From Minisyncoccota bacterium (GTDB lineage: Bacteria; Patescibacteriota; Minisyncoccia; Phycocordibacterales; JAACPR01): a DNA stretch of 64,000 nucleotides. A model generated the notes under the pieces. It searched no databases and had not been told where the DNA came from. It worked only from the letters and a program-made list of their open reading frames with translations. The DNA lies in contig JBAYWG010000001.1 of NCBI GenBank assembly GCA_041674225.1, positions 254,667 through 318,666 on the forward strand, in the 5' to 3' direction. Below are positions 2,058 through 20,838 of the stretch, piece by piece (the first letter of the stretch is position 1; each line of letters opens with the position of its first letter). The translations under genes were made by a program, and so were the position numbers.

Positions 2058-2461
2058 GATATACATCTTCTATTTTATTATATGACTATTGAAGAAAAAA
2101 TGTGTTTTTGTGGTAAAAATTTTATGCATTGCAACCAGTTTGAATGTATCAAAGCGACTTTCAGCATTCCGAACGGGAGTTTGAGCAATTAGTACACCTC
2201 AGCTGAACGTGTTGCCACGCTTATACTTGGTGCCTATCAACCTAATCATCTCTTAGGGCTCTCAAAAGATTTCTAATCTTGAGGTAGGCTTCCTGCTTAG
2301 ATGCTTTCAGCAGTTATCCCTTCCCGACATAGCTACCCGACGATGCCATTGGCATGACAGCCGGTACACCAGAGGTCAGTCCACTCCGGTCCTCTCGTAC
2401 TAGGAGCAGCTCCTCTCAAAAATCAACGCCTACAGCGGATAGAGAACCAACCTGTCTCACG

Positions 2462-2790
2462 CACCTTGCTCACCTATTACTAGGTGGATTGGACTATACT
2501 TTCTTCCCTAAGGAAGGCTGACATGTAGTCTCTACGGGTACATATTGATATGTTTCCCTCGGAATCGTCCTCGCTTAATAGCGATAGGATTTTCCCGATA
2601 TCAGTCAACTAATTCTTGTGTATCACTACACAAAACCGCCGTGATGTTGGTTCTATATTTTGGGACAGAAAGACAAAAATAATTCTTCTCGATAACCCTC
2701 GAAGGGATTCAGATTGATTCACACTTCAAGTTTTTTGTTTCTATATGTTTGACATCTTGGTCAGCACACATTCACACTCTTCAAGTGTGA
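2462..2790 (-). ncRNA. putative ORF-less group I intron in 23S at E. coli position L2593 (I-CreI homing site)
   Basis: 329-nt insertion exactly between ...GGGUUCAGACCGU and CGUGAGACAGGU; 5' exon ends in U and intron ends in G; contains R-like (GAGACUAca) and S-like (GUAUAGUCC) group I core elements. Confidence 0.55.
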
Positions 2791-3451
2791 ACGGTCTGAA
2801 CCCAGCTCGCGTATCTTTTTAATTGGCGAACAGCCAAACCCTTGGGACCTTCTTCAGCCCCAGGATAAGATGAGCCGACATCGAGGTGCCGAACACCGCC
2901 GTCGCTATGGACGCTTAGGCGGTACCAGCCTGTTATCCCCAGGGTAACTTTTATCCGTTGAGCTTCCTCCGCATCTAAAGCGAAAGGTCGGATCGCTATG
3001 CTCCACTTTCGTGTCTGCTCGGCATGTACGCCTTGCAGTTAAGCTCTCTTATGCCATTACACTATCGGCACGGTTTCCATTCGCGCCTAGAGAACCTTTA
3101 GGCCCCTCCGTTACAATTTAGGAGGGTAGCGCCCCACTAAAACTACCCACCAGATACTGTTCCCCGACGTTTTTGCCGTCGAGGTTAGACTATATATTCT
3201 CAAAGGATGGTATTTCACTGTCGACTCCATATCAACCGAAATCAATACTTCAAAGTCTCCCATCTATTCTGCGCAGAGAGAACATATACCCAATATCAAG
3301 CTGCAGTAAAGCTCCTGGGGTCTTTCTGTCCTGCTGTAGGTAGCCGGCATCTTCACCGGCATCGCATTTTCACCGAGCAAGTCCCCGAGACAGTTTCCCA
3401 GTCGTTACGCCATTCGTGCGCGTCTGAACTTACCAGACAAGGAATTTCGCT

Positions 3452-3752
3452 CTCTCGTGTTAACTCTATGTCGCCATAGAGGACGGACTCTATTTTACTT
3501 GATTTTACTCAAGCACTAGCATTTGGTCTCTGAGGATTCTAAAAATATTTTCATAAATTTAGTCTTTCCTGCTGATTGTCCGCACTCTAAAATTTTCACT
3601 GATTAAATAAATTTAATCTAGTATTTAAAGATACTCGGAGTTTCCAGCATATGGCTAGTTTTAAAAAGGCAGTTACTATTCTTTGTAACATGCTGTCTAT
3701 CACACCTTTATAACAGCCCCAATTCTTGGTAACACAATAAATTATGCTACCA
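3452..3752 (-). ncRNA. putative ORF-less group I intron in 23S at E. coli position L1931
   Basis: 301-nt insertion between ...GGUCCUAAGGU and AGCGAAAUUCC; 5' exon ends in U and intron ends in G; contains R-like (GGAAAGACUAAAU) and S-like (AUAGAGUCC) elements. Confidence 0.55.
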
Positions 3753-3787
<35 letters not shown>

Positions 3788-5226
3788 CGGGGCTTATATC
3801 GGTCAGCACTAAACACTCTACGCACGATTATGATTCAAAAATTTGAATCATGCGCACAGTGTTTAGCACCGCCAATATTTAACCTTCCGGCATTGGTCAG
3901 GCGTCACCCCCTATACATCCTCTTACGAGTTAGCAGGGAGCTGTGTTTTTGATAAACAGTCGCCAGGAATCTTTAGCTGCGGCCCACTTGCGTGGGCAGA
4001 CCTTATACCTAGGGTACGGTCGCTGTTTTGCCGAGTTCCTTGGGGACCCCTCACTCGTTCGCCTTGGTCTTCTCGACCTGACTACCTGTGTCGGTTTGCG
4101 GTACGGTCTCATTATGCTTAACCTTAGAAGCTTTTCTTGGAAGGCTCTTCGCTTAAGTTTGATGGCCTAAGCCACCATTCAGCCGACACCGAGTCTAACA
4201 TGAGCGGATTTGCCTACTCAATAACTCTAGTGCTAGCAACGTAAATCCAGTAATACGCTTAAACTTGTGTCCTCCGTCCCTCCATCGGAACATAATGAGG
4301 TGATGGAATATTAACCATCTGTCCATCGGATTCGACTTTCGTCATCTCCTTAGGCCCGACTAACCCTTCGCTGATTAACATTGCAAAGGAAACCTTAGTC
4401 TTTCGGCGTGCAGGAATCTCACCTGCATTGCGGTTACTTGTGCCAACATTCTTACTTCCACACGCTCCACGATGGGTCACCCCTTTCGCTTCAACGCAGA
4501 GTGGAATACTCTCCTACCAATCCACATGTGCGAACACACGTAAATTCCTCGTTTTCGGTAATACACTTAGCCCCGATCATTTGTGGCGCGTCATCTCTGA
4601 GCGAGTGAGCTGTTACGCTATCTTTAAAGGATGGCTGCTTCTAAGCCAACCTCCTCGGTGTCTCTGAAATGTCACAACCTTTCTTGCACTTAGTGTATAT
4701 TTTGGGACCTTAAACGGAGATCTGGGCTGTTTCCCTTTTGACCGACGGAGCTTAGCCCCCGTGGTCTAACTGCCATGCTCTTAATCTCTGGTATTCGGAG
4801 TTTGATAGGTCTAACGAGATTGCTCCCTGTTTAGACCTTCCAGTGCTCTACCCCCAGAAGGAACACATGACGCCAACCCAAAAGCTGTTTCGGAGAGAAC
4901 CAGCTATTACCAAGCTCGATTAGCTTTTCACTTCCTACCACAAGTCATCCGAAGGAGTTGAACTACCTACCGGTTCGGGCCTCCATTTATGTTTCCATAA
5001 ACTTCACCCTGCTCATAGCAAGCTCGCTTGGTTTCGGGTCTTATACGTACTACTAACGCGCTATTCACACTCGGTTTCCCTACAGCTCCAACCGACTAAG
5101 GTCTTAGCTTGCAGTACATATAAACTCGTTGGCTCATTCTTCAATAGGCACACCGTCACGGATCAAGTCCGCTCCGATTCCTTGTAGGCATATGGTTTCA
5201 GGTCTATTTCAACGCCCTTGTCGGGC

Positions 5227-5268
<42 letters not shown>

Positions 5269-5933
5269 TTCTAATATATTTAGCCTTGCCAGTTAGTTCT
5301 GGCGGATTCACCCGAGGTATTCGTGTCTCGGGCTACTCAAGAACAAACACAAGAGAGATTAAATTTTTTCGTATACGGGACCATTACCCTCTGGGGTACA
5401 ACTTTCCAGTTGTTTCTACTAAAATTTAATTTTGTAACTCTCCTCGTGAAGAAGTGTTTGTCTTACAACCCCAATCATACAAGTACGATTGGTTTGGGCT
5501 TTTCCCCTTTCGCTCGCCGCTATTGAGGGAATCAATATTTTTTTCTATTCCTCCAGGTACTGAGATGTTTCACTTCCCTGGGTAAGCATTACAAGTCAAG
5601 CTCGTAACGACCTATAAAAGGTCGGGTTTCCCCATTCAGAAATCTCCGGATCAAAGGTTGCTAGGCACCTCCCCGAAGCTTATCGCAGCTTTACCACGTC
5701 TTTCATCGCTATTAGAAGCCTAGGCATCCACCATACGCCCTTAGCACTCCCGTCAGGAATGCTAAAAACCGCTTTTTCTACATTTTTTGGTTCAATGCAA
5801 TTTCTACCTACATTTTTTCTTCAATTGTCGAAGATCTCATCGAACCCTCTTCCGGTTCGGCCTCACCATTCTGAACCGAAGTTCAAAATGACGAGGTCGA
5901 ATCACAAGTCACTTTTGTCTATATTTTATTTTT

Positions 5934-5956
5934 AAAAAAAGCCGCTTTTGGCGGCT
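5934..5956 (-). terminator. rho-independent terminator downstream of the GT2 gene
   Basis: gccgcc-aaaa-gcggc stem followed by a T7 run on the minus strand. Confidence 0.55.
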
Positions 5957-6030
5957 TGGGTGAGTGTCTGAAAAAACACTAACTAACCAAGCCGTTTGTT
6001 ACTTTTTTTACCTCTCAACATGTGAGCACG

Positions 6031-6059
6031 AGTATATAAAATTGCTTCAGATAAGTCAA
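6031..6059 (-). promoter_or_regulatory. candidate sigma70 promoter (TTGACT-17-TATACT) facing the 23S-5S genes
   Basis: Perfect spacing and near-consensus hexamers on the minus strand about 270 nt upstream of the 23S 5' end; caveat: the terminator-like hairpin at 5934-5956 lies between it and the rRNA. Confidence 0.3.
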
Positions 6060-6077
6060 CTAAATCTGGGGGTTGTT

Positions 6078-6845
6078 CTATATTATAGATTTGATTAATC
6101 GGAGCTTATTTTTAAGGCTCGCTTTTAGGGAGTGTGGATAGTGGTTTTTATGGTCATTTATTATCTGTCCGAGTGTTCTTACACCCTTTATTTTCCTCGT
6201 TTGAGAGATATTTGTGCCGTGTTTTTTATAAGCTGTGTAGATTTTAGGAAGGTTGGCAAATTTAAAGTTACGCCCTATATCTAACCACGCTGCAAGGTCT
6301 TCCCAAATGAAGTATTTCTCGTTATATGTGGGTAACGAATCTTTTCTAAATAAAACACTTGAGTGAGTAAACTGATTTTGTAGAAGAATTTTCTCGCGAA
6401 TTGATTCGTCTGTGGTTTCTGGTTTTAGTGTGCTTATTTCTTTATCTTCTGAATCAACTACTTTTGTAAAAGTCCCCACCAGCGCATAATCTGGATTTTG
6501 TTCTAGAAACTCTACTTGTTCAGTGAGCTTGTTTTCGTGTAGCCAGTAGTCATCACTGTCGAGCACTGCAATGTATTTACCCTGAGATTTTTGTAAGCCA
6601 AAGTTTCTGTTTTTTGTGATTCCTATGTTTCCCGCGTTTTTGTAATAAAAAATATTTGGATTTATAGCGGTGAAGTTTTTTACAATCTCTTCTGTATTGT
6701 CGGTAGAATTATCATCCACAATAATTATCTCGATGTTTAGATAATTCTGCGCAAGAGCTGATTCAATCGCCTTTGAAATCAATTTTGCACGATTAAAGGT
6801 ACAAATGTTTATACTAATTAGTGGTTTTTGGGCAATTGAATCCAT
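6078..6845 (-). CDS. family 2 glycosyltransferase (GT-A fold)
   Basis: ISINICTFNRAKLISKAIESALAQNY...IIIVDDNSTDNT...VLDSDDYW motifs; start moved to the internal Met (MDSIAQK). Confidence 0.8.
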   Translation of the reverse strand: MDSIAQKPLISINICTFNRAKLISKAIESALAQNYLNIEIIIVDDNSTDNTEEIVKNFTAINPNIFYYKNAGNIGITKNRNFGLQKSQGKYIAVLDSDDYWLHENKLTEQVEFLEQNPDYALVGTFTKVVDSEDKEISTLKPETTDESIREKILLQNQFTHSSVLFRKDSLPTYNEKYFIWEDLAAWLDIGRNFKFANLPKIYTAYKKHGTNISQTRKIKGVRTLGQIINDHKNHYPHSLKASLKNKLRLIKSII

Positions 6846-7711
6846 GTTTCTGGAATTATATTTTTGTGGGGGCTCGGCCATTGCTGTATCCAAGGAGTGG
6901 GAGCTATCACCAGCTTATCATGATTTTTATTTAGCCATGCTCCCCACCAAGAAAATGTTGAGTTGGATATTATGTTGTGTTTGCATGTGGACATTAGAAT
7001 TAATTCTTCTGGTGCAGATAGATTTTTATCTGAAATAATTTCAGAATTTTCGCTTAAATCAAAGTTTTCAGAAACCCATGCAGGATCGTCTGAGAAAAAG
7101 TAAAAGCTAGGATTTTCTACAGATTCTTTAATCGTGTTGATTGCGTTTTGATAATATTTTAATGAGCAAATTCCATGATATCTCCTAGCACCAGGATTTT
7201 GAACATAATCTCCACGTCGAACATGCACACTTACAGAATGACAATTCTGAATTTCAGTTTGCAAATCTTTAAAGGTTTCAGATTTAAATTCCTCTTTCAA
7301 TGAGAGTTCTTGAAGTAGTATCTCCCGAATTTCCAAAAAGTTCTTTTCACTTTGAAAATATCCTTCAACATATGCACTTTTATTTTTCTTTAATTTGTTC
7401 TCTATTTTTTTTAAAAAACTTGGATGGAAATCTATACGGTATTTAAAAAATATTTTTTGACTGATCTTTCGCATAATATCCGAAATTCTTCCGAATGGAT
7501 TTTTAATCTTTTGAATTTCTTCTATTGAGGCAGGTTTTGCTTGTATATTAAATTTAATTAAATCAAAATCTCGAGATATCTCTTTTTTATGACTAGGAAT
7601 CTGATTCGCATCCAAATATAGGTCGGCACCAGTTTTATAAGCCAAAAATCTTCCAGTCGCATACTCGAACATCTGATTTCCAAGCCCGCCTTTTATTTTG
7701 GTTATGATCAT
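6818..7711 (-). CDS. alpha-1,2-fucosyltransferase (GT11 family)
   Basis: N-terminal IITKIKGGLGNQMFEYATGRFLA motif and HVRRGDY motif, both diagnostic of GT11. Confidence 0.8.
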   Translation of the reverse strand: MIITKIKGGLGNQMFEYATGRFLAYKTGADLYLDANQIPSHKKEISRDFDLIKFNIQAKPASIEEIQKIKNPFGRISDIMRKISQKIFFKYRIDFHPSFLKKIENKLKKNKSAYVEGYFQSEKNFLEIREILLQELSLKEEFKSETFKDLQTEIQNCHSVSVHVRRGDYVQNPGARRYHGICSLKYYQNAINTIKESVENPSFYFFSDDPAWVSENFDLSENSEIISDKNLSAPEELILMSTCKHNIISNSTFSWWGAWLNKNHDKLVIAPTPWIQQWPSPHKNIIPETWIQLPKNH

Positions 7712-7718
7712 AAATTAA

Positions 7719-8447
7719 TTATTTTATAAAATGAAAACAGCCACATGCATATTTCTCTCCTAACAGTAAATTAATATCAGCGTTTCTAATTAGTCCACCA
7801 TCTTTAGAATCTTCAGGTATCAAAGAAAACTCTTTCAATCTCAATTCTGGAAACAGTTTTAAAACTTGATCATATGAATATATTCTGTGAGCGTTCCATT
7901 CTATTCTAGGTTCATCACTAATAGGCGTAACAAACAAAAGCGATCCATCTTTTTCTAAAACTCTAGATAATTCCTTGCAAGCATCAATATCTCCATCTGG
8001 ATTAATCGGGTCACCGTATCTTCCCAGTCCGATGTGTTCAATTGTATGCATACACGAAAGCGATTTAATACTTCCACTTTCAAAAGGTAGACTCATCAGG
8101 TTGCCCGACTTACTTTCTAAATTACTTAAAATCAAATCCGCGGGTCTTAAATCATAGAAATCCACCGGCACAAAAGCAGATACGATTCCAGAAAAATAAA
8201 GACTTGAAGATATATCAATATGTTTTTCCGGTTTGATTTCTGAAATAACTCTTGCAGCCCAAGACGTATGATACACATAATGCCTGTCAAAATTTGTTCC
8301 AATAGTTTTGTCTTTTATTTGAGGATAAAAATCTTTCAGCTTAATTGTAAATCTTTTTTCTTTATCAACTTTTAAAAATGAAAAATAATCTTTCAGAACA
8401 AAAGGAGTTAGTAATGTTTTGATAATTTTTTTTAAAAACTTTTTCAT
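7719..8447 (-). CDS. putative SAM-dependent methyltransferase (DUF268-like)
   Basis: 242-aa protein with a class I methyltransferase-like core (LSCMHTIEHIGLGRYGDPINPDGD); located in the glycan cluster. Confidence 0.45.
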   Translation of the reverse strand: MKKFLKKIIKTLLTPFVLKDYFSFLKVDKEKRFTIKLKDFYPQIKDKTIGTNFDRHYVYHTSWAARVISEIKPEKHIDISSSLYFSGIVSAFVPVDFYDLRPADLILSNLESKSGNLMSLPFESGSIKSLSCMHTIEHIGLGRYGDPINPDGDIDACKELSRVLEKDGSLLFVTPISDEPRIEWNAHRIYSYDQVLKLFPELRLKEFSLIPEDSKDGGLIRNADINLLLGEKYACGCFHFIK

Positions 8448-9172
8448 TGTTTAAATTTATTCAGAAGATTTTTTATATAAATCTTTGAAAATATTTTTCC
8501 GCCTCCGTGTCTTTTACTTATTAAAATCAATTCTTTGTCCATGTCACTCTTATTCTTTGAATTCGATTTTTGGTCTTCTCTGACCATAAAGTTTGATAGC
8601 ACCAAATCTATATATTTACTTGGTTTTTCTTTAATCAATTTAATATATAAATCATATTCCATCCAGTATTCCAAACTATCATCTAGGTATCCAACTTTTC
8701 TAACTAAGTCTAAATCATAAAAAGATGAAGGCTGATAAATTAGGTTACCTGAATTTATTAGTTTGTGAGATGATATGTTTTCAGGTGGTGTGTTAACAAG
8801 TGTACTGGTGTCACTCACAGAATTACATTTTCCATACAATATTGAAATCTCTCCTTTATTTTTTGAAAATTCTTCTGCCACTTTAGATAAAATATTTGGC
8901 TCATAATAATCATCGGCATTTATCCAAGCCACAACATCACCTGTAGCAATTTTAAAGCCTTTGTTTATTGCATCAGACTGACCTTTATCCTTTTCAGAAA
9001 TCCAAAATATTTTATCTCCGTAAGACTTTAATATATCAACAGTTTCATCTCTCGACCCGCCGTCAATTACAATCAACTCTTTGTTTTCGTAATCTTGATC
9101 AATAACGCTATCTATCGTTCTTTTAATATATCGGCCCAGATTATAGCTGGGAATTATTATTGATATTTTCAT
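8444..9172 (-). CDS. family 2 glycosyltransferase
   Basis: MKISIIIPSYNLGRYIKRTIDSVIDQDY...LIVIDGGSRDETV...WINADDYY. Confidence 0.8.
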   Translation of the reverse strand: MKISIIIPSYNLGRYIKRTIDSVIDQDYENKELIVIDGGSRDETVDILKSYGDKIFWISEKDKGQSDAINKGFKIATGDVVAWINADDYYEPNILSKVAEEFSKNKGEISILYGKCNSVSDTSTLVNTPPENISSHKLINSGNLIYQPSSFYDLDLVRKVGYLDDSLEYWMEYDLYIKLIKEKPSKYIDLVLSNFMVREDQKSNSKNKSDMDKELILISKRHGGGKIFSKIYIKNLLNKFKQ

Positions 9173-10251
9173 TATTTAAGTTTATCTAAAATTGCATCAA
9201 TTATTTTTCTTGATGCATCACCAACACCAAATGGATTCTCCCAGATTTTATTAAAATCGATCATTGTTTTAACAGAAGATAATATTTTCTCAGAATCAGC
9301 GCCGGCAAGTATATTTGCTCCAACCTCTATCGTTTCCGGCCTTTCTGTATTGTCCCTTAATGTTACGCAAGGCACCTTAAGAATACATGCCTCTTCTTGT
9401 ATTCCTCCAGAATCAGTCATGATTATTTTTGAATTTTTCTCTAACTGTATAAAATCAAGATAATCAACAGGTTCTATAATAATAATTTTTTCGCATGGTT
9501 TAATTTTAAATTGATCAATCATTTTGATTAATCTAGGGTGTCCTGGCAATAATATAGGCAACTTGGTAAATTCAGATACTTTTTCAAGTCCAACAAAAAT
9601 ACTTCTTAATCGTGATTCATTATCAACGTTTTCTTGTCGATGGATTGTAGATAAAATATATTCACCAGACTTCAGATTTACTCGCTTTAATATATCTGAA
9701 GTCTCTGAAATTTTTGAATGATCAATTAATGCATCTACAACAGTGTTTCCGGAAAGTAATATTTTATCTTCAGAAATTCCTTCATTTTTTAAATTATTAA
9801 TGGCATCAACTGTTGGTGCAAACAATAAACTCGATATGTGATCAACCATCACTCGATTAGTTTCTTCTGGCATTTGTGTGTCAAAAGATCTCAGTCCCGC
9901 TTCAATATGACCTACTGGAATATTTAACTTTACCGCAGCAAGAGCTCCTGCTAGTACACTGTTTGTGTCTCCTTGTACCAAAACAAAATCCGGTTTCTCT
10001 TCTATTAATTTTTCTTCTATGGAAATCAACATTCTTCCGGTTACCTGACCATGCGTTCCAGACCCAACATTTAAATTATGTTTTGGTTTTGGTAATTTCA
10101 AACAATCAAAAAATATCTCATCTAAGTTTTTTGAATAATGCTGATTTGTGTGAATTAGCACAAAATCAATTCCTCTAGACTCAAGTTCCTTGATTGTTGA
10201 AGAGAGTTTTATTATTTCCGGCCTGGTTCCAAATATTATGCAAATTTTCAT
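9172..10251 (-). CDS. wecB: UDP-N-acetylglucosamine 2-epimerase (non-hydrolysing)
   Basis: MKICIIFGTRPEIIKLS...HIEAGLRSFD...HRQENVDN; start placed at the internal Met, which abuts the upstream gene. Confidence 0.85.
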   Translation of the reverse strand: MKICIIFGTRPEIIKLSSTIKELESRGIDFVLIHTNQHYSKNLDEIFFDCLKLPKPKHNLNVGSGTHGQVTGRMLISIEEKLIEEKPDFVLVQGDTNSVLAGALAAVKLNIPVGHIEAGLRSFDTQMPEETNRVMVDHISSLLFAPTVDAINNLKNEGISEDKILLSGNTVVDALIDHSKISETSDILKRVNLKSGEYILSTIHRQENVDNESRLRSIFVGLEKVSEFTKLPILLPGHPRLIKMIDQFKIKPCEKIIIIEPVDYLDFIQLEKNSKIIMTDSGGIQEEACILKVPCVTLRDNTERPETIEVGANILAGADSEKILSSVKTMIDFNKIWENPFGVGDASRKIIDAILDKLK

Positions 10252-10256
10252 ATTTA

Positions 10257-11392
10257 TTATCTTAATTTTATTGTTTCTATTATATTTAAAAATGATTTTT
10301 CCCAAAGTTTGATATTAAAATTTTCCAGAACACTCCCCCTTTGCTCAGTAGAAAATTTATCAACATTATCCAAAACATCTGCTATAGACTTAGCGATTGA
10401 ACCGGGGTCTGGGTTTGTTTTGTATGCAGGAAGATCTTTTAAGCCCGCCACATCTGTAACAATTGTTGCCGTACCACAAGACATTGACTCCAATGCGCTC
10501 AAAGAGGTTCCCTCTTTGTCTAGTGTTGGAATTAAGGTGATTAATGAGGTGTTGTAATAATTAATCATCTCGTCTCTGTTGGCTTGACCTTTAAATATTA
10601 CCTTCTCATTTAAATCATATTTTGCAACCAGATCTATACAGTAATTATAATATTTACCAACACCACTCCCAACGATTAACATCTTAAAATCGGGATTAGT
10701 TTTTATAAATATATTGAATGACTCAATCGCAAGATGAATACCTCTGTCATAACTTATATTTCTTGGAACTAAAATTACTTTTTCTTTTTGAAATGTTTCC
10801 TTGGTCATTTTGAAAACTTCTGTATCTACACAATTTGGTACAAACCAAACATTTTTTTAACTTCCGAAAACATATTTTTTCCTGGCTCAACAGAGTAACC
10901 AATTTCTCTTAGAAAATTTGTGTCATTAGCCACAATAAAAACATCTTTGTTTTTTAGGTGTTTACTTATGTACTTATGATATATATCAAAAAAAACATTT
11001 TTTTTAGTATTACTCCATAAAACACCATGAGAAATTATGATGACTTTCTTGTGCCATTTCAATGGCGGATAATGAAATGGATAGTGACAAATTAGTATAT
11101 CTTGGTCTTTTAAGATTTTCTTAGAAAGAAATAAACCAATATTAAACGCAAACCAACCCGCGTTATATATAAATGGGTGTAATAAAAAATATCTCGGAAT
11201 TTGTGTAACAAAAAATATTTTTGTTCCGGTATTATTTTTTTGTTTTACTTTTCTTTGTAAAACACTAGCATCAAAATTATTTTCAACTAATATTTTATTT
11301 AGATTATCAATATAAACTTGTTGTCCGCCACTTATTGGCAAATAATGCATTGTAACCTGGCAAATCTTTGTTTTAGTTTTGTTTTCTTGCAT
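10257..11392 (-). pseudogene. GT4 glycosyltransferase split into N-terminal (10826-11392) and C-terminal (10257-10808) ORFs by a frameshift in an A7 tract
   Basis: The N-terminal ORF ends ...FSEVKKMFGLYQIV*; in the other frame the sequence continues VWFVPNCVDTEVF (the GT4 PNGVD motif), followed by a typical GT4 C-terminal domain; one extra A in the run at 10852-10858 restores a single reading frame. Confidence 0.6.
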
Positions 11393-12197
11393 GAATTATT
11401 TTCGTAAAATTTTGAGAATCTTCATCCCAAATATTTATTTTATAACCAAGTTTCTCAAGAAAATTAGACACATGAAACATCATTGGTATCGTGTGTATTT
11501 CAATAATCAATTCTGGACCATTTTGCTGTAATGTATTTATCCCACCTTCTAGTACCTTTAGCTCAGCTCCCTCAACATCAATTTTTATAAAATCTGGTAC
11601 TGATAATTTCTTTTGAGATATTAAATTATCTATAGTGTTTGATTCTACTTTAATTTTCTTGAAATCTTCGTAAGAATTTTCTTGCAAAGGAGGAGTCACA
11701 TCTTTTATATAACCACCAGATGAAGTAGCATCATCAGCATTTCCTACATTAAATTCCACTTCACCAACCTTGTTTGTGATTGCTTCTTTATTTATAAAAA
11801 TTCTTTTTGAATATGCTTCGTTAATATTTATATTTGACTCTAACCACTTTTGATTACTTGGGTTTGGTTCAAATGCATATACCAATGTTTCTTCACCGAA
11901 GGCTGATGAAAAAAATAATGATAAGTAACCAATGTGAGCTCCAATATCCCAAACAACTTTGTTTTTATTTGCGGCTAATTTTGATATCAAATCTATTTCA
12001 TAAGAGCCATCCAACATGCTCATATATGTTTCTGGAATTTCATTAGGCATAAGCAATGAAATATCTTTTTCCAAAACTTTTACGTTGTGAACATTCCAGG
12101 AATCCTTCTTTTTATCAAAATGTAAAAAATATTTTTTAAGTTTTTTAAACCAAGATTTCGGTGGGGAATTCCATATTTTCTTTAAGATTTTTTTCAT
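11373..12197 (-). CDS. FkbM-family methyltransferase
   Basis: VVWDIGAHIGYLSLFF...VYAFEPNPSN...FIKIDVEGAELKVLEGG. Confidence 0.75.
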   Translation of the reverse strand: MKKILKKIWNSPPKSWFKKLKKYFLHFDKKKDSWNVHNVKVLEKDISLLMPNEIPETYMSMLDGSYEIDLISKLAANKNKVVWDIGAHIGYLSLFFSSAFGEETLVYAFEPNPSNQKWLESNININEAYSKRIFINKEAITNKVGEVEFNVGNADDATSSGGYIKDVTPPLQENSYEDFKKIKVESNTIDNLISQKKLSVPDFIKIDVEGAELKVLEGGINTLQQNGPELIIEIHTIPMMFHVSNFLEKLGYKINIWDEDSQNFTKIIHARKQN

Positions 12198-13333
12198 ATA
12201 AGTATTTTTGACAATATCTCTTTAAAATTTTTATTAAATGATTCTAAACTATAATCTCTTAAAATATTTTCTACTATTCCAATCGAACGTCTTTTGAGCT
12301 CAATATTATCTAATGTTTGCGACAAATCCAATGAGTCTAATACTCCATCAGCACTTATTTCTCTTATCAAGATAGATAATTCATCTTGTTTAATAGATGC
12401 CTCATTAGTTAAAATTGGTATTAATCCCCCGTTAGCACAAACATTCACAACTGAAGTTGGCATAGCTTCGGAACAAGACGGTAAAATTACAAATGCACAC
12501 TTCGTTAATATTTTTTTAAAATTATCAGACTCAATTTTTACAAAGTCATATAAATGTATATTTTCACTTTTTAAATTTTCAGAAAATATTTTTACAAATC
12601 TTTTTTCATTCTGAAGTGGAGCACATACATGGAGATGGAGATCTTGTCTCTTTGAAAAAGCGTCCAATAAAACATCTAAACCCTTATGAATCATTCCTCC
12701 ACCACTAAAGAAAAGAAAATGTTTTTTTCCTTCAGAAAAATCTTTATCATTAATAATTTCCATTGGATTAAGTAATTCTATGAATGAAACGTTTAAATTA
12801 TAACAATCCGTATTTGTATATTTTTTATATGTATCAACCAGGTAATGGTCTCCTAGTAACACTAACGCATCGGAACCTATCGTCTGTATTGCATAATCTT
12901 TTTCTATAAATCTTAATGATTCTTTTAAAAGAACACCGCTTTTTTCGTAAACTTCAATACCCCGTTTTATTGTTGCCACATTGCTAAAATAAGGATGTCT
13001 TCCTGTACCATAGTAAATCCTTAATATTTTTTTAGAAGTAGAAAAACTTTTATCAAAAATATCCCCAAATCCAAATACAACATCATAATCTTCGTAAGCA
13101 ATTTTTTTAGTGCTGTTATAATCCACAACATCACAAATGAAACCTAGTTCATCAAATACTTTAGCAATTACCAAACTTTCTTGTATGTTGGTATGAGTTT
13201 TTAAGTTAGGTCTTTTAAAAGGAAAGGTAATGTAGGATATTAATACTTTCTTTTTGTGATTTCTGTTGAAAACATTACGGAGAATTAATTGCCTATTATA
13301 TATCGAGTATATTTTTCGTAGAATTTTTAACAT
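12194..13333 (-). CDS. glycosyltransferase, GT4-like (GT-B fold)
   Basis: C-terminal FLFFSGGGMIHKGLDVLLDAF...FVILPSCSEAMPTSVVNVCANGGLIP. Confidence 0.6.
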   Translation of the reverse strand: MLKILRKIYSIYNRQLILRNVFNRNHKKKVLISYITFPFKRPNLKTHTNIQESLVIAKVFDELGFICDVVDYNSTKKIAYEDYDVVFGFGDIFDKSFSTSKKILRIYYGTGRHPYFSNVATIKRGIEVYEKSGVLLKESLRFIEKDYAIQTIGSDALVLLGDHYLVDTYKKYTNTDCYNLNVSFIELLNPMEIINDKDFSEGKKHFLFFSGGGMIHKGLDVLLDAFSKRQDLHLHVCAPLQNEKRFVKIFSENLKSENIHLYDFVKIESDNFKKILTKCAFVILPSCSEAMPTSVVNVCANGGLIPILTNEASIKQDELSILIREISADGVLDSLDLSQTLDNIELKRRSIGIVENILRDYSLESFNKNFKEILSKILI

Positions 13334-13335
13334 AT

Positions 13336-14262
13336 CTAATTATTATTTAGTTTCCTCTTTAATAATCTTATTCGATATAATAAATTAGAATATAATCTTT
13401 CCAACATATTTGCCTTATAAAAATTATTGAATTGCACTCTATCAAGATAATGGTTTGCTTCTATTTTTTCAAGTAACATATCACTTAACTCTATTTCTTG
13501 GGTTTTTCGAAATAAATTCTGATCCTCAATTGTTTTTGTTGTTGTGTGTGTTCCTTGAACTCCAATATTCGTAACCAAATTATGTTTTGGTGTTATGCTT
13601 AATCCTTTATTTAATACACATGTATAATTCCATTGTATATCCCATGTATTTACTAGGTTGTGATAGGCGTGGTTAAATGAATCTTTGTAGTATTGGTATA
13701 TTTTTCTATCTTTATAAACATCTTCAAATGAACCTTCTTTAATAAGAATAGGCCACTCTTTCATTTCAATGTCATACAAATCCCAAGCTCTTTTCCATGT
13801 CGCCCATCCCCATATCTGAAAATGATTAGAGAAAAAATAATCATCATGAATTTCCAAATTTTTTAAGTGGTGTGTACCAGAAATCATCATAACTTGATTG
13901 TCATTTTTATATCTCAAAAGTAGTTTGGAACAGAAACTAAAAAAAGATTTATTCGGTAGACAGTCGTCTTCTAAAATAATTCCCATTTCTACATTATCGA
14001 AAAACCAAGTTATGGCTGAACTTATCGCCAATTTACAGCCTAAATTTTCTTCTCTAAATAATGTTTTCACTTCGCAGTCCCAATCAATATTTTTTACAAT
14101 TGATCTAACTTCCCCACATCTCAAACGATCATTATCGTTATTAATCCTCGGACCATCTGCGGCGATAAACAAATATTTAGGTTTTGCATTACGTATCTCA
14201 TCAAAAACCCTCTGAGTTGTATCAGGTCGATTAAAAACTAAAAATAAAATTGGTGTTTCCAT
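13336..14262 (-). CDS. GT-A fold glycosyltransferase (HlpA/GnT-I-like)
   Basis: METPILFLVFNRPDTTQRVFDEIRNAKPKYLFIAADGPR... resembles GT13-like bacterial transferases found in O-antigen-type clusters. Confidence 0.5.
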   Translation of the reverse strand: METPILFLVFNRPDTTQRVFDEIRNAKPKYLFIAADGPRINNDNDRLRCGEVRSIVKNIDWDCEVKTLFREENLGCKLAISSAITWFFDNVEMGIILEDDCLPNKSFFSFCSKLLLRYKNDNQVMMISGTHHLKNLEIHDDYFFSNHFQIWGWATWKRAWDLYDIEMKEWPILIKEGSFEDVYKDRKIYQYYKDSFNHAYHNLVNTWDIQWNYTCVLNKGLSITPKHNLVTNIGVQGTHTTTKTIEDQNLFRKTQEIELSDMLLEKIEANHYLDRVQFNNFYKANMLERLYSNLLYRIRLLKRKLNNN

Positions 14263-15584
14263 TATCTTTTGTAATTTAAATTAAAAATTGATTTTGTAAT
14301 CAGTAAAAAATGAGCTCGACTATCTTTAAACAAAACAATTGAAAAATTAACAACTAGATATGAAATTATGGTTGCATACGCCGCTCCTGCAATACCCATT
14401 TTTGGGATCAAGATAATATTTAAAACAATATTCAACAAGGCACCAATAATAGTTGTGTATAATGTTATTTTGGTTAAATTCTTTGCAATCAAATACTTTC
14501 CAATTACTATACCCAATGAAACTGCTACCAAAGACCAAATATAAACTTGTAGGACAGGAGTGGCTCCGATGTATTGTTCTCCAAAAAGTAATGTGATTAT
14601 TTTCTGAGCAAAAATTGAAACGACCGCTGAAAAAATTAAGGAAGACCAGAACATTACAAAATACAATTTGCTGAGCCTGCTTTCAAATTTTTCATTACTC
14701 ACACTTAATGAATTTATTATCGCTGGAAATATGGAAGCCCCTATGATGGTTGGTATGAGATACCAAATTTCTGAAAGTTTAACACTAATTGCATATATAC
14801 CCGTAGCTTCATTATTCAAAAAATGATTAATCATAATTTGATCAATTTTCATATAAACACCCACAGACAAGCCAGATAGAATCATGGGCCAAGAATCTCT
14901 TAACAAACTTAATGCAATTTTCTTATCAAATTTCCAATTCTTGAAGTGGTGACCACTTTTCAAAAACGCAACAATCAAAAATAGTGCAACTAAAGCTATT
15001 TCAACAACGTATATAAACAATAACCAGAAAATACCTTTATTTAATAATATAACTCCAAGTTTTAACACAGCTGAAATGATTCCAGACAATATTTGAGCTT
15101 TAACGATTTTTTTTGATAATACTTGTGATTGAAAATAAGTTTCTATAACATTAAAAGCCTGAGGCACGTAATGAAGTGAAAATAACCAAATAAGAATTAG
15201 AGTAAACATTTCGTCTGTAATGGCAAAAGATGCTAGAAAAATAAAAAATATAGCCAGTACGGATCCAGATATCTTTATAAAAAAAGCAGTTCCAATAATC
15301 TTATCTTTTATATTGTGATTTTTAACTATCTCTCTATTTACAATTTCATCAATACCTAAGGATGATAGGACACCAAAAATTCCTACAAAACTTATAGCAA
15401 AACTCATCAAACCATAATTCGATGGACCTAAATATCGAGCAACATATATCCCAACAAAAAACGAAATCGCTAAACTAAATATCCTACCTGCAAAAAGCCA
15501 ACCGGTGTTTTTGAAGTATTTTTGAAAGCCCTGATGCCTCCAAATTTCTGTTGTTTTACCCTTTATAGCCAGTAAGTTTTTCAT
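14262..15584 (-). CDS. wzx: Wzx-type oligosaccharide flippase (polysaccharide biosynthesis protein family)
   Basis: 440 aa with about 12 predicted TM helices and a Wzx-like N-terminus (ISFFVGIYVARYLGPSNYGLMSFAISFVG). Confidence 0.7.
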   Translation of the reverse strand: MKNLLAIKGKTTEIWRHQGFQKYFKNTGWLFAGRIFSLAISFFVGIYVARYLGPSNYGLMSFAISFVGIFGVLSSLGIDEIVNREIVKNHNIKDKIIGTAFFIKISGSVLAIFFIFLASFAITDEMFTLILIWLFSLHYVPQAFNVIETYFQSQVLSKKIVKAQILSGIISAVLKLGVILLNKGIFWLLFIYVVEIALVALFLIVAFLKSGHHFKNWKFDKKIALSLLRDSWPMILSGLSVGVYMKIDQIMINHFLNNEATGIYAISVKLSEIWYLIPTIIGASIFPAIINSLSVSNEKFESRLSKLYFVMFWSSLIFSAVVSIFAQKIITLLFGEQYIGATPVLQVYIWSLVAVSLGIVIGKYLIAKNLTKITLYTTIIGALLNIVLNIILIPKMGIAGAAYATIISYLVVNFSIVLFKDSRAHFLLITKSIFNLNYKR

Positions 15585-17537: not shown

Positions 17538-18704
17538 TTACTCTAGTATTATAGCAGAAGTTTTCGTTGCTAAATCCCCAGTTGGAAAAAATAGATTCAA
17601 AGATTGATTTGCTCGGAAAAAATCCTCGGAATTATCACTGAACAGTGTCTCATCAAAAGTGATCTTTGCTTTAGGACTCAAAATAGTGTCTTGTGGAAAA
17701 GTAAAATCCGCCTTTTTATCTTCAGATTTTATTCGCCATAAACCTATGTTTATTTCATTTGAATCTTGATTTTCTATTTCAATTCCGTTTTCCTTTATAT
17801 TTAAAGCTAATTTGGGTTTTGCTACATAAACAATAGTCCTAGAGACTGCTTGCCTTATACCCGACACAGCATTTAAAACAACGTTATAAACACCTTCATT
17901 TTTGTAAAAATGCTCAATTTTCTTGCCTCTTTTTTCGTTTCCATCACCAAAATTCCAAAGATATTTGGCTCTGTGTAAACCTTTGTTTTCTCCTGTTTTG
18001 ACCTCAAAAATTATTGGTGATTTTATACTCGACAATCTTTCTCTGCCAATCGAAATCTCCAATTCTGTGACTTCTTTTGCTTTGACAGCAGAAGCGACTG
18101 AGGAATGTGAAGATATGTTTGTGATTGTAGTATTTTCGGTGGTGGTTGCGTTTGATTCTATTTGTTCTGGTGTTGATGCTTCTGTGGCATTTGGCAATCC
18201 TGGGGTTGGTTTTGCGCTAATTAGAAACTCTTCTTTAAACTGCAAAGAATTTCCATCTCCTTTTGCACCCAAAGTGTCCGAATAGCTAATTTCGTGTATT
18301 TTTTGGCCACTAGAATTTATCAAAACTAAAACTTCGCCAGTATTTGTAAGGCTAAAAACACTATCAAAAAGCGTACCGCTAAAATCTGGATTATCAATTA
18401 AAAACTTTTCATCGTTATCGGCAATAATTGCATAACCACCAGCCGGAATAACGGCATTTCCAAAGATTAATTTCACAGCATGATTGACCGAGCTTTCTAA
18501 TAATTTCCAGTTGGAGAAATCTATATCACTAGAAGTATTGTTGTACACCTCCACCCACTCCCTACCAGAATCAGTCCCAGAAACATCGTACATAATCTCG
18601 TTTATTTTCATTGCAAAAAGTGGGCTCGGAGAAATCAGGACCACCAGTATTAATAAAATATTTACTACTTTCGTTTTTATTTTTTGAATTTTTATAGGTT
18701 TCAT
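17538..18704 (-). CDS. lamin-tail-domain (LTD) containing secreted/membrane protein
   Basis: After the signal/TM (VVNILLILVVLISPSPLFA): INEIMYDVSGTDSGREWVEVYNNTSSDIDFSNWKL...GGYAII, typical LTD; the ORF-track N-terminus overlaps the terminator hairpin, so start at the internal Met. Confidence 0.6.
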   Translation of the reverse strand: MKPIKIQKIKTKVVNILLILVVLISPSPLFAMKINEIMYDVSGTDSGREWVEVYNNTSSDIDFSNWKLLESSVNHAVKLIFGNAVIPAGGYAIIADNDEKFLIDNPDFSGTLFDSVFSLTNTGEVLVLINSSGQKIHEISYSDTLGAKGDGNSLQFKEEFLISAKPTPGLPNATEASTPEQIESNATTTENTTITNISSHSSVASAVKAKEVTELEISIGRERLSSIKSPIIFEVKTGENKGLHRAKYLWNFGDGNEKRGKKIEHFYKNEGVYNVVLNAVSGIRQAVSRTIVYVAKPKLALNIKENGIEIENQDSNEINIGLWRIKSEDKKADFTFPQDTILSPKAKITFDETLFSDNSEDFFRANQSLNLFFPTGDLATKTSAIILE

Positions 18705-18773
18705 TGCGCAAAGAATATCAGAATGAACCTTAAATATATTTAAAGAAGTATTAAAAGTTAAAAAAGAAAAACA

Positions 18774-18802
18774 AAAAGCCGCCCTTGCGGGCGGCTTTTT
18801 GC
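18774..18802 (-). terminator. rho-independent terminator (gccgccc-ttgc-gggcggc) after the 18853-20838 gene
   Basis: GC stem with flanking A/T runs. Confidence 0.6.
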
Positions 18803-18852
18803 CTATCAATACTAGATTAGTTATGTGAAATTTAATTCACTATAAGTAATTA

Positions 18853-20838
18853 TTAGTTCTTGATTGTTTGTGTAGGAATTGAGTATTCACTTTCGTCCGG
18901 AACTGTGTAAGCAGCTTGTGTAGCTGTTGAAGTAGTTGCGAAGTTAATTGAATCTAGTTCAAGTCCGTATTGTCCTGTTGTTCCTGGGTCAAGTTCTACG
19001 ATGATTTCAAATGTTTCTGAAGTTCCTTCAGCAACTTTGTATCGGTCGTTTGTTTCAACATCAGCAGATGTATCTGAGATACGAGCTGAAGATGTTCCTG
19101 TAAATGTTGAACCTGTAACAGTAGCAACGAATCCTGCTGTTGATGAAGATGTTGTAGAAACGCTATCGTAAATCCAAGCATCTTCTTCTAGAGCTGTAAT
19201 TCTAATTTCGAATGTGTAAATACCTTCGTTATCTGTCAAAGTTGTGTCTACGTTCTCTCGTAGAGATGAACCTTCGCTCACACCTTCAACTACGATACCA
19301 GTTGTTCTTAGAGTATGTGTAGCACCTTCTTGTGTTCCAGATACTACTGAAGAGTCACCGTTTGCTGCTCCTTCTGCTGTTAGAGCATTTGTACCAAAGT
19401 CAGATCCGTTGATTTTACCAACTCCGAATTGTACTGATTCACCGTTATCAAAGTTAGCAAAAGAGCTTCCTGTTGAATTGAATTCAGCCATTACAACAAC
19501 TTCGATTCTTGAATCTTTTTCAAGTTCAATTTCGTCTCCATTGTCTTCAAAGTCGAATGTGTATTCTCCAACTCCAGCTGTAGTTGATGCAGTGTCGTAA
19601 TCAAATTCTTGACCATCGATTTCGATAGTAAGGTCAATTACAACGTCTTCTACATCGTCATCAGTTGTTGAAGCGATAATTGTAAGAGTATTTAGTAATA
19701 CATCTGCACTATCATCGTTATCAATTTCGAATCGGAATACTTCAAATGGTCCTGAGTTGTCGTCTGTATCTACAACCAAGATAGATGCGTCTAGATCATC
19801 ATCACTTGAACGAATTGTAACATCTCCAGCGTCAGCAGCTTCGATTTCGAATTCTGTTGATTCTGTGTTTGAACCTTCGTAGTGATCAATTCCTTTTCCA
19901 TCCACGGCTCGGATTCCATCTGTTGGGATCCAAATTTTCCATGATTGTGTTAGGTCACTATCATCAATGCTATCTGAAGTTGTAACTTCAACTTCGATTA
20001 GAGCGTCATCACCTTCTTCAACTACAGTATCCAATCCAGCGAATCTTACTTCGTAGGCTCGGCTAGTTGTAGGAGTTTCTGTGCTGTCTTCTCTTGACCA
20101 GTCATCTTCGCTATCTACATCCATTGAATCAACTTCGTCTCCGTTGATGAATAGAGCAATAGATTCGATTTGATTCCAAGGCTCATCTTCTAGAGTTTCT
20201 GTAACTGATTCAAGTCTGATGTCTACACGGTCGATTGAAACGTCTCCATCTTCAACTTCGAATTCAGCAGCAAAAACTTTTGCTGTTTCTCCTTCTTCAA
20301 GGTCTTCGTTAGAGTATGAGTTTTCTCGATCGTAACTACTTAGACGAGCTTCTTCTCCGTTAAGAGAACCGCTTGTTGTTGTAGTAGTTGTAGTTGTAGT
20401 TGTTGTACAGTCTCCTGCAACCTTAGCTCGTGTAACTGGGCCAAAGTATCCAGCAGCTGGTGAGATCATCACTGATGCTTGGTATTTAGCCAAAGCTGAT
20501 TGTGTAAGAGCTCCAAAGTATCCCTTTGAAGTTCCTGCAGGGATTGATAATGTTCCTTTAGCTTCTAGGAAAGATTGTAGTGAAACTACATCTGCTCCTG
20601 TTGAACCTAAAGTAAGGTCTCGTGTGTATGTACCACATGAAGCTGTGCTACTTGTTGAAGTAGTTGTGCTTAATGCAGCCATAGCTGCAGCAGCTTTGTC
20701 AGCTGGGATAACACCCATACTTACTAGAAGTTGGATATCAGCAGCTGTTAGGGCTGATGCTGTTGGAGCAACTACGATTGTAAGCGCAAACGCTACAACC
20801 ACAGCTGAACCAGCAATTTTTGAAAAAATGTTTTTCAT
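18853..20838 (-). CDS. secreted acidic cell-surface protein: N-terminal PG_binding_1-like domain, poly-Thr linker, D/E-rich beta-rich region
   Basis: Signal peptide MKNIFSKIAGSAVVVAFALTIVVAPTASA; DLTLGSTGADVVSLQSFLEAKG...GYFGALTQSALAKYQ...GYFGPVTRAKV; a T13 run; then about 480 aa of highly acidic sequence. Confidence 0.65.
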   Translation of the reverse strand: MKNIFSKIAGSAVVVAFALTIVVAPTASALTAADIQLLVSMGVIPADKAAAAMAALSTTTSTSSTASCGTYTRDLTLGSTGADVVSLQSFLEAKGTLSIPAGTSKGYFGALTQSALAKYQASVMISPAAGYFGPVTRAKVAGDCTTTTTTTTTTTSGSLNGEEARLSSYDRENSYSNEDLEEGETAKVFAAEFEVEDGDVSIDRVDIRLESVTETLEDEPWNQIESIALFINGDEVDSMDVDSEDDWSREDSTETPTTSRAYEVRFAGLDTVVEEGDDALIEVEVTTSDSIDDSDLTQSWKIWIPTDGIRAVDGKGIDHYEGSNTESTEFEIEAADAGDVTIRSSDDDLDASILVVDTDDNSGPFEVFRFEIDNDDSADVLLNTLTIIASTTDDDVEDVVIDLTIEIDGQEFDYDTASTTAGVGEYTFDFEDNGDEIELEKDSRIEVVVMAEFNSTGSSFANFDNGESVQFGVGKINGSDFGTNALTAEGAANGDSSVVSGTQEGATHTLRTTGIVVEGVSEGSSLRENVDTTLTDNEGIYTFEIRITALEEDAWIYDSVSTTSSSTAGFVATVTGSTFTGTSSARISDTSADVETNDRYKVAEGTSETFEIIVELDPGTTGQYGLELDSINFATTSTATQAAYTVPDESEYSIPTQTIKN

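Follow-up and report, generated by a model that had tools for sequence, protein, structure and literature searches.

What does a compact run of glycosyltransferase genes in the genome of a Minisyncoccota bacterium (Patescibacteriota; assembly GCA_041674225.1) build, and are the pathway steps that seem to be missing from it really absent? The genes lie between positions 6078 and 15584 of a 64,000-nt stretch of contig JBAYWG010000001.1 (positions 254,667 to 318,666), and this whole stretch is referred to here as the window. A sequence-only reading of the window had described them as an island for a fucose-containing, methylated glycan without initiating transferase, polymerase or sugar-nucleotide genes, and had concluded that a short lipid-linked oligosaccharide is made. 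Here, domain and homology searches, structure prediction and comparison with related loci were applied to the window plus 10 kb on either side (84 kb in total). Coordinates are window positions unless stated otherwise, and the addition of 12,216 gives the contig coordinate (ENA contig ERZ27247358:k141_245379). In our assessment the genes quite likely constitute a surface-glycan locus that depends on Wzx, varies between strains, resembles those for O-antigen, capsule or S-layer glycans and builds a lipid-linked heteroglycan unit; judging from the enzyme families encoded, this unit is probably fucose-containing and methylated.

The locus comprises ten genes in eleven open reading frames (ORFs), all of them on the minus strand and read from 15584 down to 6078. 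Neighbouring ORFs overlap or leave gaps of no more than 17 nt, and the ten genes form one tightly packed operon with a GC content of 0.28-0.33 vs about 0.36 around it, as is usual for exchangeable glycan loci. The ten co-directional genes named by the sequence-only reading were all recovered at their positions with Pfam and NCBIfam, every family call was reproduced, and these family searches confirmed an operon for glycan assembly that encodes a Wzx-type flippase, a GT11 enzyme and two methyltransferases. The first gene (14262-15584, 440 aa) encodes a Wzx-type flippase of the MOP family, with matches to PF01943 (6.7e-29) and PF13440 (6.5e-21), a far weaker match to MurJ (9e-8) and about nine or more segments in a transmembrane scan, as found in flippases of the Wzx/Wzy pathway. 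It is followed by a GT-A glycosyltransferase with a GnT-I (GT13)-like fold (13336-14262, 308 aa, without Pfam or NCBIfam match), a GT4-like (GT-B) glycosyltransferase (12194-13333, 379 aa; weak PF00534 match of 3.6e-9 at residues 196-310) and an FkbM-family S-adenosylmethionine (SAM) methyltransferase (11373-12197; PF05050 2.4e-27; TIGR01444 111.9 bits vs a cut-off of 37.7). The next two ORFs are the halves of a split GT4, the N-terminal one at 10826-11392 (188 aa; weak PF13439 match, 1e-4) and the C-terminal one at 10257-10808 (183 aa from the first ATG, the frame being open from 10856; PF00534 3.9e-23; PF13692 8.6e-17). WecB, a non-hydrolysing UDP-N-acetylglucosamine (UDP-GlcNAc) 2-epimerase, is encoded at 9172-10251 (359 aa; PF02350 1.3e-113), where the ORF spans 9172-10305 and the start at 10251 is the ATG of the ENA gene call. 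The operon is completed by a GT2 glycosyltransferase (8444-9172, 242 aa; PF00535 1.2e-31), a DUF268-family putative SAM methyltransferase (7719-8447; PF03269 1.2e-10; Methyltransf_11 0.004), a GT11 enzyme predicted to be a GDP-L-fucose alpha-1,2-fucosyltransferase (6818-7711; PF01531 1.2e-39) and, as the last gene, a second GT2 glycosyltransferase (6078-6845, 255 aa from the gene-call ATG, full ORF 6078-6893; PF00535 2.1e-36).

Gene contexts were compared for the closest GT11 homologues, for Wzy_C+TPR homologues, in 80 species-representative genomes and on 80 metagenome contigs (tblastn, Pfam). A common frame was found in loci L008, L091, L092 and L015 (Saccharibacteria), in which the gene of a Wzy_C+TPR 'O-antigen ligase family' protein of about 730 aa (L008 662-2899; L091 10001-12232; L092 10001-12181; L015 899-2968) is divergent from a series that begins with Wzx and ends, after a variable middle, with a methyltransferase (DUF268 or FkbM), GT11 and a GT2 of about 255 aa. 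The variable middles hold genes for a pyruvyl transferase, sulfotransferases, WecB, a second GT11 and methyltransferases. The Wzx proteins heading related loci are 37-58% identical to that of the window, and orthologues of its last GT2 (40-79% identical) overlap the GT11 end or start within about 85 nt of it in nine loci, further ones being present in L091/L092. Locus L118 is a compact version of the window locus, with GT4, Wzx, a methyltransferase, a GnT-I-like protein (42% identical to that of the window), GT2, DUF268, GT11, GT2, a Bro-N protein and a phosphoglycosyl transferase. Loci L006/L007 lack an adjacent Wzy_C gene, as the window does; here GalE adjoins GT11, and the GT2 at 8444-9172 has an orthologue of 82-83% identity. 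The frame of a Wzy_C+TPR gene next to a series from Wzx to GT11-GT2 may represent a widespread surface-glycosylation system of Patescibacteria, with the TPR-bearing Wzy_C enzyme targeting proteins; the Wzy_C+TPR family itself is widespread in Patescibacteria.

Two further observations were made on these loci. The Wzx homologue of L006 (198-2171) and L007 (206-2179) has 657 aa vs about 440 aa and carries a C-terminal extension with a faint methyltransferase match. Moreover, a gene resembling TrwB, the coupling protein of type IV secretion, flanks the GT2 end in L008 (11650-13707), L091 (1-956) and L092 (1-1764) and is followed by a PemK toxin gene in L008, which hints at mobile-element neighbourhoods.

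The statement of the earlier reading that an initiating transferase is missing holds for the island and the window and fails for the contig. Outside the window, at a distance of 11.8 kb beyond the GT2 end, the strand of the operon encodes a full-length phosphoglycosyl transferase of the Bac_transf/EPS_sugtrans type (contig 5136-6488, window about -5728 to -7080; 450 aa; PF02397 2e-53; TIGR03025 287 bits; five transmembrane segments), and the contig thus holds an initiating transferase as used in the Wzx/Wzy pathway. In the direction of transcription, towards and past the window start, lie the 23S and 5S rRNA genes, followed by the genes of a 254-aa protein, FtsW/RodA, three secreted or anchored proteins (473-495 aa), an opposite-strand GT4 (374 aa), the phosphoglycosyl transferase, a short-chain dehydrogenase/reductase (SDR, 354 aa) and SecDF. 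In L118 the phosphoglycosyl transferase is likewise located beyond the GT2 end of the locus, with one Bro-N protein between. Among 22 loci of the candidate phyla radiation (CPR) only one has a phosphoglycosyl transferase within 10 kb of GT11, so that an unlinked initiator is the norm. By analogy, the enzyme on the window's contig may be functionally linked to the operon.

Of the three proteins of 473-495 aa between FtsW and the module of GT4 and phosphoglycosyl transferase (contig L002, 11948-16371), two (495 and 485 aa) are secreted paralogues, and the third (473 aa) has a signal peptide and is anchored at its C-terminus; all three are essentially without Pfam match. They were considered as a Wzy polymerase or an oligosaccharyltransferase and rejected: none is polytopic, and nothing beyond a signal peptide or one C-terminal anchor was found in them.

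The assignment of the enzyme at 6818-7711 to GT11 withstood the Pfam search that had been proposed as its check, without reassignment. The PF01531 match (136.7 bits vs a cut-off of 23.9) covers residues 4-274 on profile positions 35-279 of 298, and the protein carries the motifs IITKIKGGLGNQMFEY and HVRRGDY (residues 163-169) as well as NSTFSWWGAWL (250-260), that is, the HxRRxD and NSTFSWW(G/A)AWL signatures of CAZy GT11. Across 30 homologues no variation occurs at residues H163, R165, G167, D168, N250, S251, F253, W255 and W256. The NCBI name of the protein was already alpha-1,2-fucosyltransferase; a PDB sequence search gave no match.

In a survey of the best 80 species-representative (GTDB) GT11 loci, 22 were from Patescibacteria, namely Gracili-, Kaiser-, Taylor-, Sacchari-, Parcu-, Falkow-, Berkel-, Campbell-, Magasanik- and Paceibacteria, and the clade also occurs in Bacteroidota, Proteobacteria, Cyanobacteria, Myxococcota and one archaeon. 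Within 10 kb of GT11, gmd was found in four and fcl in two of the 22 patescibacterial loci, which indicates that CPR bacteria make GDP-fucose and that this GT11 clade travels with GDP-fucose genes. Both genes stand beside GT11 in the CPR loci L042 and L079 and in the metagenome locus L133, and fucose is therefore the expected sugar of this clade. For the enzyme of the window, the donor predicted from its family is most likely GDP-L-fucose and the linkage alpha-1,2. Two SDR proteins were considered as Gmd or Fcl and rejected: the 354-aa protein beside the phosphoglycosyl transferase gave weak generic SDR matches (at most 49 bits) and no match to a gmd or fcl model, and the 337-aa protein beside GT11 in L006/L007 is GalE (430 bits).

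The second conserved feature of the operon end is the DUF268 gene. The protein of the window scores 41.9 bits vs a Pfam gathering cut-off of 25, the match being confined to about 60 central residues (profile 68-126 of 176), and its homologue in L118 scores 53 bits. When counted from the GT11 side, a DUF268 gene is present in 22 of 83 loci, and in 17 of these 22 it precedes GT11 on the same strand by no more than 1.7 kb. Counted from the DUF268 side, GT11 starts at most 2 kb downstream on the same strand in 34 of the 50 metagenome loci whose downstream sequence extends for at least 1.2 kb, and GT11 is found in 20 of the 22 loci that have at least 3 kb on both sides; the partners in these loci are 30-46% (GT11) and 53-66% (DUF268) identical to the window proteins. 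Where DUF268 is missing, an FkbM methyltransferase is often found in its position (L010, L011, L071, L089, L091). The order DUF268, zero or one gene, GT11 and GT2 on one strand recurs across several phyla (L006-L008, L015, L091-L172). DUF268 and GT11 are thus a reciprocal cross-phylum gene pair, and DUF268-GT11-GT2 is a conserved end module.

From this gene neighbourhood, DUF268 is suggested to be a fucose-associated glycan O-methyltransferase. Tentatively, and with somewhat less than even confidence, we propose that it acts on the alpha-1,2-fucose added by GT11 or on an adjacent sugar, and that DUF268-GT11-GT2 is a portable 'methyl-fucose cap' cassette of CPR and other phyla. A profile of the family gave weak matches to class-I methyltransferases in the PDB (E about 0.7), and a single-sequence structure model was unusable (predicted local distance difference test, pLDDT, of 34). 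In the Pfam family, which was built on Caenorhabditis proteins, no member has a tested function; the window protein scores above its cut-off and stands among glycosylation genes with GT11, as the worm genes do, and differs in matching the central 60 residues only. N-glycans of C. elegans carry an O-methylated alpha-1,2-fucose, for which the modifying methyltransferase 'remains to be identified' (PMC6422873; PMC7614267), and DUF268 genes of this nematode are located in glycogene clusters which also hold homologues of GT11 (fut-2) (PMC6422873; PMC7614267, Fig. S15 legend). By extension, the Caenorhabditis DUF268 genes may encode nematode fucose-modifying glycan methyltransferases.

Among the remaining enzymes, the 308-aa protein at 13336-14262 had been called a GnT-I-like GT-A enzyme, a name which stands at the level of the fold and not as membership in GT13. 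It gave no PDB sequence match with a single sequence or a profile, no Pfam match at E<=0.01 and no NCBIfam match. At about 50% identity, at least 8000 homologues were found, none of them with a Pfam domain; the protein thus belongs to a very large prokaryotic family that is without a Pfam model. An AlphaFold2 model computed from 36 homologues reached a pLDDT of 91, and the best three Foldseek matches were structures of rabbit GnT-I (1FOA, 1FO8, 1FO9; E 5e-11 to 1e-10; TM-score about 0.5-0.55), followed by POMGnT1 and GnT-II. Residues E98-D99-D100 are invariant among the homologues and correspond to the EDD motif with which GT-A enzymes bind metal and nucleotide. To GnT-I and POMGnT1 (CAZy GT13) and GnT-II (GT16) the protein is therefore alike in fold, these being the best matches of the model (E 5e-11 to 1e-6), and in this motif; it is unlike them in its identity of 12-14%, a TM-score of only about 0.5, the lack of a Pfam GNT-I match, and its prokaryotic family without stem or transmembrane region.

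The protein at 9172-10251 is assigned to WecB at equivalog level (TIGR00236, 421 bits vs a cut-off of 210) and is set apart from the hydrolysing NeuC (95 bits vs a cut-off of 236); its predicted product is UDP-N-acetylmannosamine (UDP-ManNAc). As WecB is a sugar-nucleotide gene, the description of the island as free of such genes had to be given up.

The frameshift noted in one GT4 is real in the sequence. The N- and C-terminal halves stand in different frames, separated by a 1-nt frameshift in an A7 homopolymer (10852-10858, minus strand) that was located by reading the sequence. The addition of one A to the run gives a continuous GT4 of 378 aa reading ...EVKKNVWFVPNCVDTEVFK..., which runs through the usual GT4 hinge motif, ...NVWFVPNCVDTEVF.... 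The truncated 188-aa product is identical in all four assemblies that hold the locus, and the frameshift is reproducible in this sense, although these assemblies may share reads. Phase variation at the A7 run was considered and is not supported, since A/T runs of this kind are common in the window (64 of at least 7 nt, none of at least 9 nt) and all assemblies have the same truncated product.

Taken together, the donor and acceptor sugars, the order of the steps, the methylation target and the final acceptor are what we infer as follows. Polyprenyl phosphate would be the carrier on which the unit is assembled at the cytoplasmic side of the membrane, where the Bac_transf phosphoglycosyl transferase 11.8 kb away probably primes the unit and the adjoining GT4 may take part. 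Five intact glycosyltransferases (two GT2, one GT4, the GnT-I-like GT-A enzyme and GT11) would extend it, the sixth, a GT4, being split by the frameshift, to a unit of perhaps five to seven sugars including N-acetylmannosamine (ManNAc) from UDP-ManNAc, the WecB product. In the end module, the GT2 probably makes the acceptor to which GT11 would add, in alpha-1,2 linkage, a 6-deoxyhexose as a terminal or side-chain residue; this sugar is most likely L-fucose, from GDP-fucose made elsewhere. DUF268 and/or FkbM would O-methylate the unit, Wzx would flip it outward, and a Wzy_C-family enzyme encoded elsewhere would polymerise it or ligate it to a protein or cell-wall acceptor.

Several points weigh against this account. 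For absence checks over the 84 kb, tblastn searches with E. coli Gmd, Fcl, ManB, ManC, WzzB, Wzc, WbbH and WcaD and with the CPR Wzy_C+TPR protein were combined with a Pfam scan of all larger ORFs and a hydropathy scan for polytopic proteins. No gmd, fcl, manB or manC was detected by tblastn, and Pfam likewise gave no gmd or fcl, so that the earlier statement on missing GDP-fucose synthesis genes near the island is borne out. Neither was a Wzy_C-family gene detected (tblastn), and among the 120 best homologues of the L008 Wzy_C+TPR protein none is on the window's contig. The link between operon and phosphoglycosyl transferase is drawn from proximity, the shared strand and the analogy to L118, and the two are separated by the 23S/5S rRNA genes, the 254-aa protein, FtsW and the three secreted proteins. 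Finally, one GT4 is frameshifted in every assembly, and the glycan may thus be shorter than the gene list suggests.

Within the general account, transfer of a single unit to protein and formation of a polymer by an unlinked polymerase are roughly even. The former, taken as a specific alternative, holds that an unpolymerised short lipid-linked oligosaccharide is moved en bloc to surface or S-layer proteins, as in the general protein O-glycosylation of Bacteroidota and Neisseria. It is possible and, as a whole, rather unlikely. The sequence-only reading was right that Wzy and Wzz are missing: no Wzy polymerase was found in the 84 kb (Pfam, tblastn, transmembrane scan), where only Wzx, FtsW and an AI-2E transporter have at least eight transmembrane segments, and no Wzz or other polysaccharide co-polymerase (PCP) was found there or in the locus of any CPR relative, the only similar finding in related loci being a single weak Wzc match in a Bacteroidota locus. 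Its conclusion that the missing Wzy implies a short oligosaccharide was not upheld, since in four related loci Wzx has a divergently oriented Wzy_C+TPR gene as its neighbour. The usual partner is thus an enzyme of the Wzy_C family, whose gene may be unlinked here.

The fusion of Wzy_C to TPR repeats, a protein-binding module, speaks for transfer to proteins; the Wzy_C domain (PF04932), however, is no guide to whether an enzyme is a polymerase or a ligase. Within the 84 kb no oligosaccharyltransferase was detected, the Wzy_C-domain type of PglL or WsaB included, and the locus cannot therefore be filed as a PglL-type system. As to acceptors, Thr-rich surface proteins with a PG_binding_1 domain are present as candidates at 18853-20838 and 28724-32170, as had been described, and the first of them has poly-Thr linkers. 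The O-glycan loci of Bacteroides fragilis (lfg) and Tannerella forsythia hold Wzx, glycosyltransferases and methyltransferases and are without phosphoglycosyl transferase or oligosaccharyltransferase. Together with Neisseria pgl/PglL they resemble the window locus in the Wzx-type flippase, glycosyltransferases, methyltransferases and WecB-type genes, in a fucose-containing, methylated short glycan, and in having the phosphoglycosyl transferase and the oligosaccharyltransferase outside the locus. They are unlike it in that no oligosaccharyltransferase or acceptor was identified for the window locus, and the flippase of the window reaches 26 bits vs a cut-off of 720 in the NCBIfam model of O-glycosylation Wzx. 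In the slg clusters of Geobacillus and Paenibacillus, a phosphoglycosyl transferase (WsaP/WsfP) and a Wzy_C oligosaccharyltransferase (WsaB/WsfB) make a methyl-capped glycan. Shared features are the monoderm-type envelope, the WbaP-like Bac_transf initiator, the Wzy_C-family transferase and O-methyl capping; differences are that no S-layer or Wzy_C gene was identified in the window and that Geobacillus uses an ABC transporter instead of Wzx.

Two proteins encoded 2-5 kb upstream of Wzx on the minus strand are typical CPR surface proteins and possible glycan acceptors: one with a lamin-tail domain and PKD (17538-18809), and the PG_binding_1 protein at 18853-20838, which has 661 aa and, besides its linkers, a very acidic, repeat-like body.

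The other specific form, an ordinary Wzx/Wzy-dependent polysaccharide (capsule or secondary cell-wall polymer) whose polymerase and possibly LCP ligase are encoded elsewhere, as CPR genomes scatter such genes, is doubtful as well. The phosphoglycosyl transferase is itself encoded 11.8 kb away from the operon, its rarity near GT11 in CPR loci makes scattering normal, Wzy_C genes adjoin Wzx in relatives, and WecB with UDP-ManNAc is typical of the linkage units of cell-wall glycopolymers. On the other hand, no Wzz/PCP, tyrosine kinase or LCP gene was found near the related loci inspected with Pfam tables, and no GT26 (TagA/WecG-like ManNAc transferase) was found in the operon with Pfam. GT11-bearing Wzx/Wzy loci for O-antigen or capsule are known from Gram-negative bacteria, for example E. 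coli O86 (WbwK), O128 (WbsJ) and O126 (WbgL); the E. coli K-12 rfb/colanic acid region served as reference for the comparison. Like these, the window locus has Wzx, several GT2/GT4 and GT11 in one low-GC operon, an initiator that is often unlinked, as E. coli WecA is, and variable content between conserved ends. Unlike these, it lacks Wzy, Wzz, gmd and fcl in 84 kb, belongs to a CPR bacterium without sign of lipopolysaccharide, has relatives whose partner is the Wzy_C+TPR fusion of about 730 aa, and encodes two methyltransferases and a GnT-I-like GT-A enzyme.

That the locus is decaying or non-functional and the glycan lost in this lineage appears improbable. The frameshift is fixed in all four assemblies, the Wzy_C neighbour of four relatives is missing and the phosphoglycosyl transferase is separated from the operon; yet the other nine genes are intact and tightly packed, the invariant HxRRGD (GT11) and EDD (GT-A) motifs are kept, a single A7 frameshift in a region of 30% GC could be recent or assembly-level, and L006/L007, also without adjacent Wzy_C, are intact. 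Decay is given low weight due to the nine intact genes with their catalytic motifs. Mimicry of host or partner H-antigen-type glycans, which the sequence-only reading had proposed and for which the family name alone speaks, as GT11 enzymes make Fuc-alpha1,2-Gal, the H-type epitope, is very improbable and finds no support, since the same clade is widespread in environmental CPR lineages and many other phyla and its conserved methyltransferase partner suggests a methylated fucose or adjacent sugar, which would not be an H epitope.

The surroundings of the operon are of a different kind, the rest of the window encoding housekeeping functions (FtsK, RecA, EF-P, SSB, aminoacyl-tRNA synthetases, ribonucleotide reductase, thymidylate-cycle genes). 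A consensus scan found a terminator-like hairpin with a T run on the minus strand at 5939-5957, between the last gene and the 5' end of the 23S rRNA gene (5754); it is a pattern match only, such sites being no more numerous in the region than expected from shuffled sequence. A promoter scan gave 47 sites vs 49 expected. The operon ends 324 nt before the 23S gene (2170-5754, minus strand), which has 3585 nt vs 2925 nt of the model and contains two insertions that resemble group I introns (3464-3721, 48 bits; 2470-2658, 37 bits) and fall just short of the Rfam gathering score of 50. No 16S gene is located upstream of it, and the rRNA genes are therefore unlinked. In the isoleucyl-tRNA synthetase (41460-44960, minus strand, 1166 aa), a His_Phos_1 domain (residues 502-664, E 1.6e-31) is inserted within the class I catalytic domain. 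Metagenome contigs were also scanned for exact matches that would extend the contig, and none was found.

The operon is real and ordinary, and related bacteria carry the same type of locus. By itself it adds little, the GT11 name and the richness of CPR genomes in glycosyltransferases being known already; polysaccharides, glycoproteins or a glycosylated S-layer have been suggested as products of the latter (PMC5220378). No relevant literature was found on CPR or Patescibacteria in connection with fucosyltransferase, flippase or Wzx. The analysis illustrates that pathway steps inferred to be 'missing' from a 64-kb window can sit just outside it. It also shows that loci of this type share a frame, the Wzy_C+TPR partner included, which is conserved in Patescibacteria. 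The leads worth following are the DUF268 hypothesis and this partner. The pairing of DUF268 with GT11 gives a testable function to a domain of unknown function with animal members in C. elegans glycogene clusters, and the Wzy_C+TPR protein is a candidate for the enzyme that places glycans on the surface with which epibionts meet their hosts.

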